Assembly (NCBI GenBank): GCA_016930515.1
Contig: JAFGGO010000155.1
Span: 1-22,219, forward strand
DNA: 22,219 bases
Source of the DNA: Promethearchaeota archaeon
GTDB taxonomy: Archaea > Asgardarchaeota > Lokiarchaeia > Sigyniarchaeales > SOKP01
Reading direction: 5' to 3'
Numbering within the stretch: the stretch's first letter is position 1; each line of letters begins with the position of its first letter. A program made the translations under genes and the position numbers. Below the pieces are notes generated by a model that worked only from the letters and a program-made list of their open reading frames with translations, made no database searches and was not told the DNA's origin. Positions 5,485 to 13,597 of the stretch are shown piece after piece.

Positions 5485-6312
5485 TTATTGAAGCGCATCT
5501 TTAATTCCTGATACGAAAGAAACCATATCTTGTTCCATTTTCTCAAAATCGTGCAAATTTCTTTCGACAATGTTGACTATGGCGGAGCCTATTATGACCC
5601 CATTGGCTCCTGCTTGAGTAATTTCAATGACATGATCTGGTTTGGATATTCCAAAACCAACCAAGATCGGAATCACATTATTTGTAAGCTTGCTGATTCT
5701 GTGCATTGTATCTATCGTGATTTGGGATGTTGAAGTTCTTGCTCCCGTGACGCCCATAACAGAAATTAAATAGATGAAACCACGCGCAACTTTGAGAATT
5801 TTTTGAAGTCTTTCTTCCGTAGTCGATGGTGCAATGAGAAATATCAAGCATAGATCGTGCTTTTCGCAGGCTTTTAGTGTTGGACCTGCTTCTTCAATAG
5901 GTAAATCTCCTATCACGATTCCATCAACGCCACTTTCTTTCAATTTTTTAATTGTCTTATCTAACGATTCTTCAATCGTGTCTTCTCCTTGAATAATTAT
6001 GTTGTAATAAGTGAGTACGACTATCGGTTTTTCGGTCTTTTCTCTTATTTTTTTTATAGCATTGAGAGCAACCGCGGTGTTAATTCCCGTCTTAAATGCT
6101 CTTGTATTTGCAGCTTGGATCGTTGGTCCGTCAGCAATGGGATCGGAAAAAGGTATCCCAATCTCTAAAATATCAGCATATGGTTCAATCGCCAAGCATA
6201 ATTTTTTAAATTGCTCAATATTCGGATCTCCTGCAACTAAAAATGGCATGAATTTTTTTGCCTTAGTTCTATTGCTTGTTTCAAATAGCTGTATTATTCT
6301 ATTATATTTCAT
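5485..6312 (-). CDS. trpA: Tryptophan synthase alpha chain
   Basis: LEIGIPFSDPIADGPTIQ (catalytic Glu and Asp), GVTG, VGFGIS, IIGSAIV. Confidence 0.97.
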   Translation of the reverse strand: MKYNRIIQLFETSNRTKAKKFMPFLVAGDPNIEQFKKLCLAIEPYADILEIGIPFSDPIADGPTIQAANTRAFKTGINTAVALNAIKKIREKTEKPIVVLTYYNIIIQGEDTIEESLDKTIKKLKESGVDGIVIGDLPIEEAGPTLKACEKHDLCLIFLIAPSTTEERLQKILKVARGFIYLISVMGVTGARTSTSQITIDTMHRISKLTNNVIPILVGFGISKPDHVIEITQAGANGVIIGSAIVNIVERNLHDFEKMEQDMVSFVSGIKDALQ

Positions 6313-9532: not shown

Positions 9533-10588
9533 TTACAATAAATTATTTAATTTTTCTTTTTCTCCACCAGATATTTCAACCAAGTGCTTCAATTTTTCCA
9601 TTGCATTTCCCGATTCTATCGAATTTCTTGCGATAGATACCGCATCTGAAAAGTCAGAAGCTTTATTTGCACTTTTTAAAGCTAGTGCCGCGTTCATTAA
9701 CACCGTATCGTACTTAGCATCTCTTACCCGATTATGTAGTATTTTTATCGCAATCTTTAGATTTTCTTCCATTGTACCAGATAACAATTCCTTCGCAGAA
9801 TATTGCGGTAGGTTGAATTCTTGGCTTGTTATAGCATATGATTCAATTTTACCATCCGTTATTTCCGTTACATAATTAATTCCTACTGGAGCTATCTCGT
9901 CTATACCCAGCGAATTATATACTGTAAACGCGTGTTTCGTACCTAACCCGTTTAGTACATTCGCCATAAGAGGGGCCAATTCTTTTTGAAACACCCCAAG
10001 AATATGATATTTAGCGCTAGCAGGATTTGTTAAAGGCCCTAATATGTTAAACACCGTTCGAATTTTTAACGCTCTCCTCGTGGGCATCGCGTGTTTCATG
10101 GCAGGGTGGAATAGGGGTGCAAACATGAATCCTATTCCCACTTTTTCTATGCATTCTCTAACGCCTTCGGGAGGCAAGTTTATTTTAACACCCAATCCCT
10201 CTAATATATCTGCACTTCCACATTTGCTTGTTACAGCACGATTGCCATGCTTTGCTACTGGAACACCTGCTCCAGCTACAACTAATGCGGATATTGTACT
10301 TATATTGAAGGTTTTTATTTTATCGCCACCTGTACCGCAAGTATCCAATAATTCACCTTCAACAGCAGGATTGATCTTGCTTGAAAATTCTCGCATGATT
10401 CGAGCAAATCCCGTAATTTCTTCAGACGATTCTCCCTTCATGCTTAAACCAGTTAAAAACGCCCCAAGCTGAGATTCTTGAACCTTGCCCGTCATTATGT
10501 CCCTCATAACATTTTCTGCTTCATATATTGACAAATTTTCTTTGCATGTTATTTTCCTTAAAGCGTTTACTATCGTTTCTTCTTCCAT
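9533..10588 (-). CDS. trpD: Anthranilate phosphoribosyltransferase
   Basis: DTCGTGGD, FNIST, VAKHGNR, GSADILE, RTVFNILGPLTNPA; AAGGA SD at 10599-10603. Confidence 0.97.
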   Translation of the reverse strand: MEEETIVNALRKITCKENLSIYEAENVMRDIMTGKVQESQLGAFLTGLSMKGESSEEITGFARIMREFSSKINPAVEGELLDTCGTGGDKIKTFNISTISALVVAGAGVPVAKHGNRAVTSKCGSADILEGLGVKINLPPEGVRECIEKVGIGFMFAPLFHPAMKHAMPTRRALKIRTVFNILGPLTNPASAKYHILGVFQKELAPLMANVLNGLGTKHAFTVYNSLGIDEIAPVGINYVTEITDGKIESYAITSQEFNLPQYSAKELLSGTMEENLKIAIKILHNRVRDAKYDTVLMNAALALKSANKASDFSDAVSIARNSIESGNAMEKLKHLVEISGGEKEKLNNLL

Positions 10589-10693: not shown

Positions 10694-10746
10694 AAATAGC
10701 GTGAAAAATAGCTTATTCCATTGAAATAGCGTTACTGCCAACGCCA
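10694..10746 (-). promoter_or_regulatory. Putative trp attenuator region (overlapping hairpins plus U-rich tracts)
   Basis: Hairpin UGGCGUUG-GCAG-UAACGCUA (10746-10727) overlaps hairpin GCUAUUUC-AAU-GGAAUAAGC (10730-10711), which is followed by UAUUUUUC; three GCUAUUU repeats. Confidence 0.5.
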
Positions 10747-10788
10747 AGGCCACTGCCAACCGAAGTGATTTGCGAACGAGATTGTCAT
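10732..10788 (-). CDS. trpL: Putative trp operon leader peptide MTISFANHFGWQWPWRWQ (18 aa, 4 Trp)
   Basis: ATG at 10788, TAA at 10734-10732, four in-frame TGG codons; AAGGA 8 nt upstream; ends 143 nt before trpD on the same strand. Confidence 0.85.
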   Translation of the reverse strand: MTISFANHFGWQWPWRWQ

Positions 10789-11054: not shown

Positions 11055-11116
11055 CCTAATGATGATAATTAAAAAAACTGAAAGATGCAAATGAAGAATT
11101 CCTCTCGTTCTGAAGG
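11055..11116 (+). ncRNA. Archaeal C/D-box 2'-O-methylation guide sRNA
   Basis: C ATGATGA 11059-65, 12 nt, D' CTGA 11078-81, 9 nt, C' ATGAAGA 11091-97, 12 nt, D CTGA 11110-13; terminal CCT/AGG stem with k-turn geometry; D guide antisense to conserved 23S sequence. Confidence 0.85.
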
Positions 11117-11148
11117 TAGAGACGAATTTCCGTTAAATTATAATAACT

Positions 11149-11505
11149 TTATTTTTTTGAGTCAAATACCTCTTTTAACAAGCTTGGAACTTTTTTTTCG
11201 GTTATATCTCCAACTTCAGTAATCAACATGTATTTTTTATCTTGTTCCACTCCGTCTAATACTCGATGAGGATCGAGAATTCCATCGAAAAACCCAAATT
11301 TGACGTGTTGATTTGGATCCTTCTTAATAAAACAAACTTTTCCATCTTTTTCGTAAATAGGAATATCATTTCTAAAATTTTCTCCTATATCTGGAATTAA
11401 ATCAAAAATAAGCGCCCTAAGCTCCTCAATAATCGCTCGAAACGGGGGAGGTACCTTTCGTATGTATTCGATAGCGTCCATATTAATATTTGCCATTTTA
11501 CCCAC
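11149..11505 (-). CDS. DUF1801 (YdhG-like) domain protein
   Basis: Pattern YI...P...R.I.EELR.LI....PD..E.....P.Y...G..C.I.....HVKFGF; true start may be ATG 11496. Confidence 0.75.
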   Translation of the reverse strand: MGKMANINMDAIEYIRKVPPPFRAIIEELRALIFDLIPDIGENFRNDIPIYEKDGKVCFIKKDPNQHVKFGFFDGILDPHRVLDGVEQDKKYMLITEVGDITEKKVPSLLKEVFDSKK

Positions 11506-12011: not shown

Positions 12012-12731
12012 TTAATTCGGCCTAAAACTTTTACCTAACAAGTATGTTCCTATTACGAGTATGAATCGAGGAATAAAGACAAAGGCGTGAATAAAATGAC
12101 CTGGAACAACTGTATCCGCTAAAACAACACATCCAAAAATTGGGATTGCAATAATTAGAAAATTAGTTCTTTCCTTTAATTTTCCCGTAGAAAGCTTCCT
12201 AAACTTATGCCACCCCAATGCACAAATTATAGTTGAGATCATCGTTTGTAGCCATATAAATACGAAAAAGAACGACATTGGATTAACCCAATCGTCGTAT
12301 ACTTCGTTAATAGAATCAAGTCTGGAAATATGGATTGCATATGGGAATTCTATAAAAAAAGTGATATAATATATCACAGATATGATTATTGCAACGATTA
12401 ATATATGCTTTTTATTCATTGGGCTTCCTACTAGATCCCAAGAGGAACTCGTAATTGCAAAGGATCCAATAGGAAGAGTACAATAGGAAAAAAAAAAGAA
12501 TACAGATCTTATCCAAGGAGCATTTTGTCCAAGAAACAAAACCGATAAAAAAGAAATGCTAATTCCTGACCAACCTAAAGCCATAGATAAATAGATCATC
12601 ATTCCGTTAATATATATGGAATTTTTATGATTCCTATATCGAAAAATATCTCGAATAAAAAAAATCCAAGCTATTACAACGATTACAAATGCGCTAAGTC
12701 CATTGACCCATGATAGATACACATTTGTCAT
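12012..12731 (-). CDS. Seven-TM membrane protein (paralog 1)
   Basis: Seven hydrophobic segments; shares NG.SA, RD..RYR, APWI, VYDDWVN and RT motifs with the neighbour. Confidence 0.85.
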   Translation of the reverse strand: MTNVYLSWVNGLSAFVIVVIAWIFFIRDIFRYRNHKNSIYINGMMIYLSMALGWSGISISFLSVLFLGQNAPWIRSVFFFFSYCTLPIGSFAITSSSWDLVGSPMNKKHILIVAIIISVIYYITFFIEFPYAIHISRLDSINEVYDDWVNPMSFFFVFIWLQTMISTIICALGWHKFRKLSTGKLKERTNFLIIAIPIFGCVVLADTVVPGHFIHAFVFIPRFILVIGTYLLGKSFRPN

Positions 12732-12874: not shown

Positions 12875-13597
12875 TTAGTGTTCAGCAGTAGGTTTATATC
12901 CCTGGCTTAACAAAATAAGCCCGAGAACCTCTATAAATCTCGTAAGGAATAAAGACGAAAAGATTAAGTAATCTGGGACTGTTGCATCAGTCGTAAATCC
13001 AATTCCAATTAAAAACGATGATATTAATATGAGTTTGGTTCGCTTTTTTATTGTTCCTGAAGATCTTTTTATCATGTGATAAATACCCATTATGGCGCTA
13101 AATCCCGGTACAGTCATTAAAACGAGTGAAACTATATAAAATAAGGACCTTATATTAACCCAATCATCATAGACCGAGTAAGGTAATTCAAGTGAGTTAT
13201 GACGGATAGCGTCTGAATATGTGGAAAATAACACGATATAATAGATAATGGAAAGGATTGCAGAAATTAACATTATTATTTTCATTTTTTCAGGTTTTCC
13301 GTCCCACGCACCTTTATTAATTACAAAAGCCACAAAAGGAAGTCCAGAAAAGGAAAAATAACCTGCCACACCCACTATCCAGGGCGCAGTATATCCAAGT
13401 GCAATGACTGAAATGAAAGAGAGAACCACACCTATGAAACTAAATGCGGTCACGATATATATGACCATACCATAAATATATAAAGTGATGTTATAAAACC
13501 TATACCTGTATAAATCCCTTAAGAATAAGAACAAGGCGGTTATAAAGAGTACTAAAGCACTAAAACCATTGATAATGTTAATTAAAATATTCGTCAT
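12875..13597 (-). CDS. Seven-TM membrane protein (paralog 2)
   Basis: Colinear with the 12012-12731 product, 240 vs 239 aa. Confidence 0.85.
   Translation of the reverse strand: MTNILINIINGFSALVLFITALFLFLRDLYRYRFYNITLYIYGMVIYIVTAFSFIGVVLSFISVIALGYTAPWIVGVAGYFSFSGLPFVAFVINKGAWDGKPEKMKIIMLISAILSIIYYIVLFSTYSDAIRHNSLELPYSVYDDWVNIRSLFYIVSLVLMTVPGFSAIMGIYHMIKRSSGTIKKRTKLILISSFLIGIGFTTDATVPDYLIFSSLFLTRFIEVLGLILLSQGYKPTAEH

Follow-up and report, generated by a model that had tools for sequence, protein, structure and literature searches.

A free-standing box C/D sRNA gene in a Lokiarchaeia-type archaeon with a guide predicted to address A2660 of the sarcin–ricin loop

Assembly of L7Ae, Nop5, and fibrillarin into an RNP on box C/D RNA is an established pathway, and the standard archaeal guide geometry consists of ten pairs starting at D+2. 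Few RNA elements in life are as conserved as the sarcin–ricin tetraloop, and its residue A2660 is the base contacted by elongation factors and removed by ricin-type toxins. Predicted archaeal methylation sites are concentrated in domains II, IV, and V, and the cryo-EM model of P. abyssi contains only two 2′-O-methyladenosines in 23S rRNA, both of which, by their numbering, lie far 5′ of the loop. The sRNA lists for seven archaea include no guide that covers the GAGA tetraloop (PMC4644070 supplements), and the plant sarcin–ricin loop seems to be unmethylated according to a review (PMC11542601).

The closest described systems are RNAs directed at helix 95. Methanopyrus kandleri sR80 is an archaeal C/D guide predicted to act on this helix (PMC4644070 supplements). 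Read from its sequence, which is unrelated to that of the sRNA described here, sR80 aims at the 3′ strand of the stem just past the loop and not at the tetraloop. In vertebrates, the C/D RNA SNORD91 guides formation of Gm4618 in helix 95 (PMC12288042). This site belongs to the stem and follows the ricin adenine by about 13 nt on the 3′ side, and SNORD91 is not homologous to our sRNA. In human rRNA, we take the ricin adenine to be A4605. Finally, Tetrahymena TtnuCD32 matches helix 95 over a long stretch that takes in box D; its predicted site is not methylated, and the RNA acts in rRNA processing (PMC6315972). Our literature search, provisional in that it covered subscription papers and modification tables sparsely, returned no report of a guide or of ribose methylation at the sarcin–ricin tetraloop in any organism and no report on Asgard sRNAs.

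A four-box sRNA gene upstream of a trp operon

The window, by which we mean the whole 22,219-nt stretch of DNA analysed, is contig C24 of a host assembly (G000) of 4.0 Mb that is 94% complete. The host is a Lokiarchaeia-type Asgard archaeon, as the relatives sharing the element are named Promethearchaeia or Helarchaeota. All features of the sRNA gene lie on the plus strand. Box C (11059–11065) matches the consensus perfectly and is followed by an A-rich D′ guide (11066–11077) and a perfect box D′ (11078–11081). A 9-nt loop then leads to box C′ (11091–11097), which has one mismatch to the consensus, and to the D guide (11098–11109) and a perfect box D (11110–11113). By sequence, a terminal stem forms between 11055–11057 and 11114–11116, the latter strand being supported by homolog comparison as well, and a 3-nt k-turn bulge is placed at 11058–11060. 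The terminal kink-turn thus follows the sequence rules of a 3-nt bulge, tandem G–A pairs, and a 3-bp stem; folding programs do not model k-turns. A T-rich run at 11150–11159 is, by its sequence, a possible archaeal terminator of the sRNA transcript.

The archaeal order C, D′, C′, D is therefore present near consensus at 11055–11116, with spacers of 12 and 12 nt and 55 nt from box C to box D (54–57 nt in intact homologs). An earlier note on this DNA had described this complete layout, with its two equal spacers and closing stem, and every element was found in place. At the level of sequence, the locus is confirmed as a free-standing box C/D sRNA gene of ordinary build and about 62 nt. A strict four-box pattern occurs once in the host genome, at this locus, and in none of eight simulated genomes. 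The loose four-box pattern occurs at three places, compared with about 2.6 per simulated genome, or 0.4 when a 3-bp stem is also required; among the three places, only 11055–11116 has both the stem and a guide match of at least 10 nt. Both patterns miss guides whose boxes have drifted. Rfam gave no family match at the locus up to E = 5.

The gene is intergenic. On one side is trpD, which ends at 10588 on the minus strand, and on the other is a minus-strand DUF1801 gene (11149–11505). Upstream of trpD-trpC-trpF-trpB, the minus strand at 10732–10788 encodes a trp leader peptide of 18 codons with four Trp codons near its end, and the Trp-rich stretch is kept at other trp loci. This leader is a candidate ribosome-mediated attenuator. 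The upstream leader showed no significant fold, and no paralog of it was found elsewhere in the host genome. The 3′ flank of the sRNA (11117–11130) is able to fold back onto the D guide in a precursor and is not kept in homologs. Farther along, the minus strand carries two tandem paralogous membrane proteins that are 36% identical (12012–12731 and 12875–13597), the first without a Pfam match.

[quoted passage not shown]

The host assembly contains two 23S 3′ fragments, on contigs C11 (locus L002) and C72 (locus L003). The C11 fragment is assigned by sequence to the host itself because its helix 95 is identical to that of the same-genus genome G012 and because it is 81–90% like those of family members. 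The C72 fragment was rejected as the host's; it is about 66% identical to C11 and relatives, its upstream ORF looks by eye like a LAGLIDADG endonuclease, and the contig is probably a contaminant. This divergent archaeal fragment and endonuclease-like ORF are accompanied by an RNase P RNA and a transposase, and its sarcin–ricin loop is the same as that of C11. Many 16S and 23S genes of the host's family break at contig ends. Compared with relatives, the 3′ portion of 23S carries inserted sequence near 5870–5940 of L002 in the host and 5095–5217 of L088 in G026, which may represent introns or expansion segments.

The earlier note had proposed, from the guide alone, that the D guide is complementary to the sarcin–ricin loop and that T11105 pairs with the A2660 equivalent. 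The exact target is indeed present in the host 23S sequence on C11, and the register is right. Positions 11099–11108 form 10 Watson–Crick pairs from A2657 onward, T11105 (D+5) stands opposite A2660 (C11 position 6065, minus strand), and T11109 (D+1) is unpaired. Archaeal C/D guides have 9–12 nt of complementarity with a Watson–Crick pair at D+5, and here the match spans 10 bp. With a duplex energy of −16.2 kcal/mol, this site ranks first among all 23S and 16S sequence compared. For the host 16S and the middle of its 23S, which are absent from the assembly, other targets were checked on relatives, the 16S check using partial Lokiarchaeia sequences. The D guide has no match in tRNAs. A random 12-mer finds a 10-nt rRNA complement 0.9% of the time.

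The host has the genes for the modification machinery, with fibrillarin and Nop5 adjacent on contig C58 and L7Ae-family genes also encoded. In the proposed mechanism, L7Ae would bind the C/D and C′/D′ kink-turns and recruit Nop5 and fibrillarin, the D guide would form its 10 pairs with the unfolded sarcin–ricin loop of pre-23S rRNA, and fibrillarin would then place a methyl group on the ribose of A2660, which occupies the second position of the GAGA tetraloop. In this scheme, the D′ half would act as a scaffold with a dead guide. Transcription, RNP assembly, and methyl transfer are all inferred steps. Two metatranscriptome contig sets from the same study yielded nothing for the locus, which counts neither for nor against transcription. 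In a GNRA loop, the 2′-OH of the second position lies outside the hydrogen-bond network of the loop, which makes Am2660 structurally plausible. We favor, with moderate confidence, a reading of the sRNA sequence as a guide for Am2660, which would be an accessory stabilizing or fine-tuning mark and is probably dispensable, given that most close relatives are without the gene. The prediction that the sRNA 2′-O-methylates A2660 thus stands as regards a genuine C/D guide, D+5 on A2660, the machinery genes, and a register kept in homologs, and the methylation itself keeps the status of a prediction.

The suggestion in the same note of tuned elongation-factor function or altered ribotoxin sensitivity is unsupported, as most relatives do without the gene and the antisense strand of rRNA alone gives the A2660 register. 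For the latter reason, aim at the ricin base is not necessarily a product of selection for A2660. No ricin-family (PF00161) genes were found in 161 genomes, a weak result in that the control genomes were blank too, and a link of the sRNA to ricin is likewise unsupported.

Homologs, origin, and alternative roles

The homolog search in Asgard genomes that had been proposed returned copies with box C, box D, and this D guide in three other genera of the host's family (G004 of genus g2, G026 of g10, and G016 of g5) and in one Helarchaeales genome, G262. Carriers make up 4 of the 135 genomes of the family, so that the gene is missing from 97%. We found no copy in the two largest genera of the family (96 genomes) or in near-complete congeners of the host, and other trp loci, including those of the same genus, have no sRNA gene. 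Across 400 Asgard genomes, no convincing copy appeared outside Lokiarchaeia, and other archaea gave no true copy when 185,579 genomes were scanned once for a pattern demanding a perfect box C and this D guide. A search allowing a noncanonical box D added no homolog in 161 genomes, its anchors costing about 30% loss. A covariance-model search served for leads only, since it scored just 34 candidates per genome and missed the Helarchaeales copy.

Several candidates were set aside. Bacterial and viral pattern matches have no D′ or C′ boxes and are attributed to chance, as are the matches in G015, G177, G200, G000:C57, and L071, which are inside ORFs or without boxes. Those in G288 and G290 are real C/D RNAs with a similar core and a different target. 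L019, L020, and L007 (G288, G290, and G139) hold complete C/D sRNAs that belong to other Asgard families and have no relation to the loop guide.

The G026 copy is syntenic with that of the host, upstream of the same trp operon, yet alignment is confined to the boxes, the D guide, and the trp leader. The host and G004 copies are 82.5% alike over 63 nt in different neighborhoods. Among the homologs, the D′ guide, loop, and flanks diverge, and the boxes and D guide are kept above flanking DNA. The closing stem has the same 3 bp in G016 and G004 and 4 bp with a G–U pair in G026. Box C is identical in G004, G026, and G262 and has one change in G016 and in G014, which holds a decayed copy at the G016 position. 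Box C′ is variable among homologs, being degenerate in G016 and G262, and the internal boxes of the G016 copy are degenerate. At G026 (L094:4630–4660), a second perfect box C begins 8 nt past box D of the copy and is perhaps a relic of a tandem sRNA. In G008:C166 (L012:1499–1523), a single unit of box C, a 13-nt guide with one mismatch to the loop, and box D precedes a hairpin and a T run; from its sequence, it could be half an sRNA.

A2660 stands at D+5 in all five copies, and every intact D guide finds its best rRNA site in the sarcin–ricin loop. D+1 varies across the copies (T, G, T, A, A) and has become nonpairing in G000 and G026, with box D invariant; the only change within the guide core, at D+4 in G016, retains a U–G pair. 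Taken together, this pattern is consistent with a C/D guide. The duplexes of G004 and G262 extend to 12–14 pairs.

In another reading, the expressed RNA would be a chaperone or checkpoint of 50S assembly that pairs with helix 95 and keeps the loop from closing, and stable methylation would be slight or absent. Pairing in the host can run on through box D, which lowers the duplex energy from −16.2 to −21.4 kcal/mol, and isolated helix 95 folds with only −3.3 kcal/mol by standard energies. TtnuCD32 provides a precedent (PMC6315972), and A2660 is functionally critical (Clementi 2010). However, the loss of pairing at D+1 in G000 and G026 while box D stays is as for a methylation guide, and the two guides of the G262 copy are offset by exactly one base, each set by its own box, an arrangement that is sensible only if D+5 matters. 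A needed assembly step would also not be absent from 97% of the family. We regard a chaperone role as rather unlikely.

The G262 copy (L056:5503–5559, minus strand; G262:C3, about 629503–629559) is the strongest member of this family of sarcin–ricin loop guides. Both of its guides address the loop, the D guide at A2660 and the D′ guide, ahead of its own box D′, at G2661. It lies within a chromosomal tRNA array flanked by ordinary metabolic genes and not viral ones, and the G016 copy adjoins an AT-rich accessory region; a provirus context for these two copies is not supported.

The D′ guide of the host (11066–11077) had been said to look degenerate in the earlier note. It indeed has no target in the assembled host rRNA or in tRNAs, but it is not simply degenerate, being identical at 9 of 12 positions to the D′ guide of G004. 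The latter is a perfect 12-nt complement of the 3′ strand of helix 76 in all four g2 genomes with 23S; G004's own 23S is unassembled, and the match is read on these relatives. The helix-76 stretch differs in other genera, and the host strand mismatches the host guide at D′+5. A-rich 12-mers match by chance 0.3% of the time. As judged from these comparisons, the host D′ guide is probably a nonfunctional relic that may have come from a g2-like donor. The G026 D′ guide matches a site some 800 nt upstream of the 16S of a congener, which we attribute to chance.

Such transfer signs, with the host D′ guide fitting the rRNA of genus g2 and not that of the host, would also suit a mobile RNA-guided defense mark carried by some Lokiarchaeia, in which 2′-O-methyl groups at A2660 and G2661 would keep nucleases or glycosidases from attacking the loop, whether these come from competitors, from viruses, or from toxin modules of the cell itself. 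Cleavage 3′ of G2661 requires its 2′-OH. Both predicted sites are classic toxin sites, A2660 being the classic depurination site (PMC10281472). The distribution is patchy and position-shifting with decay, and the placement of the G262 copy inside a tRNA array and of the G016 copy beside an accessory region fits as well. Patchy gain and loss are, however, normal for archaeal sRNA guides (PMC6009581), no toxin or defense gene flanks the G000, G004, G026, or G008 copies, and the genes around the G262 array are metabolic rather than viral. A defense role thus appears quite improbable; if true, it would mean that snoRNA machinery is used in biological conflict, with ribosomes protected from loop-attacking enzymes.

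The guide may owe its origin to the rRNA gene itself. Box D (11110–11113) is also complementary to the four 23S bases directly 5′ of U2656 in the host's family, so that the rRNA gene, read on its antisense strand, supplies a guide followed by box D and set to A2660; this holds for most of the family, with 38 such loci among those examined. An A2660 guide would thus result from capture of an antisense 23S fragment even if that base were never selected for, and the copies in Loki and Helarchaeales genomes could have separate origins. Taken to its limit, this origin would make the gene a nearly neutral by-product, a fragment captured behind a C′ box that is drifting or silent, and the decayed G014 and half G008 copies, like the 38 antisense loci, agree with such a fate. 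Yet ten guide positions and the boxes are kept over four genera and a second order in which flanks, loops, and D′ guides are unalignable, and conservation of this kind, like the likeness between the G000 and G004 copies, needs selection. Retention across genera and a second guide for G2661 do need selection too. We consider near neutrality highly improbable as an account of the gene today, although capture may explain how it began.

Relation to known C/D guides

If the favored Am2660 reading is true, a natural methyl group at this position would mean that a ribose mark is tolerated or put to use where translational GTPases dock, and it would offer a simple test of the effect of the mark on factor activity and toxin attack, for which close relatives with and without the gene form a natural comparison. 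The locus also suggests a route for new guides, in which an antisense rRNA piece brings its own box D.

Compared with TtnuCD32, the host sRNA is alike in that complementarity to helix 95 covers its 3′ end together with box D, whereas TtnuCD32 pairs at the base of the stem and is a eukaryotic RNA of the U14-like kind. Sulfolobus acidocaldarius sR127 (PMC4644070 supplement), which is expressed, has a very similar A-rich D′ guide but another D guide, and the likeness is probably compositional. The archaeal dual-guide box C/D sRNAs (Dennis et al. 2015, PMC4644070; Lui et al. 2018, PMC6009581) resemble the host sRNA in length, in their four boxes, and in their 12-nt spacers, and also in the short terminal stem, the 10-bp guide, the presence of one orphan guide, and the restriction to a lineage. 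Unlike the listed archaeal C/D sRNAs, the host sRNA has the helix 95 tetraloop adenine as its predicted target and is without an Rfam match. From its sequence and that of its homologs, it is a real, conserved but rare C/D guide, of a known kind and with an unusual predicted target.
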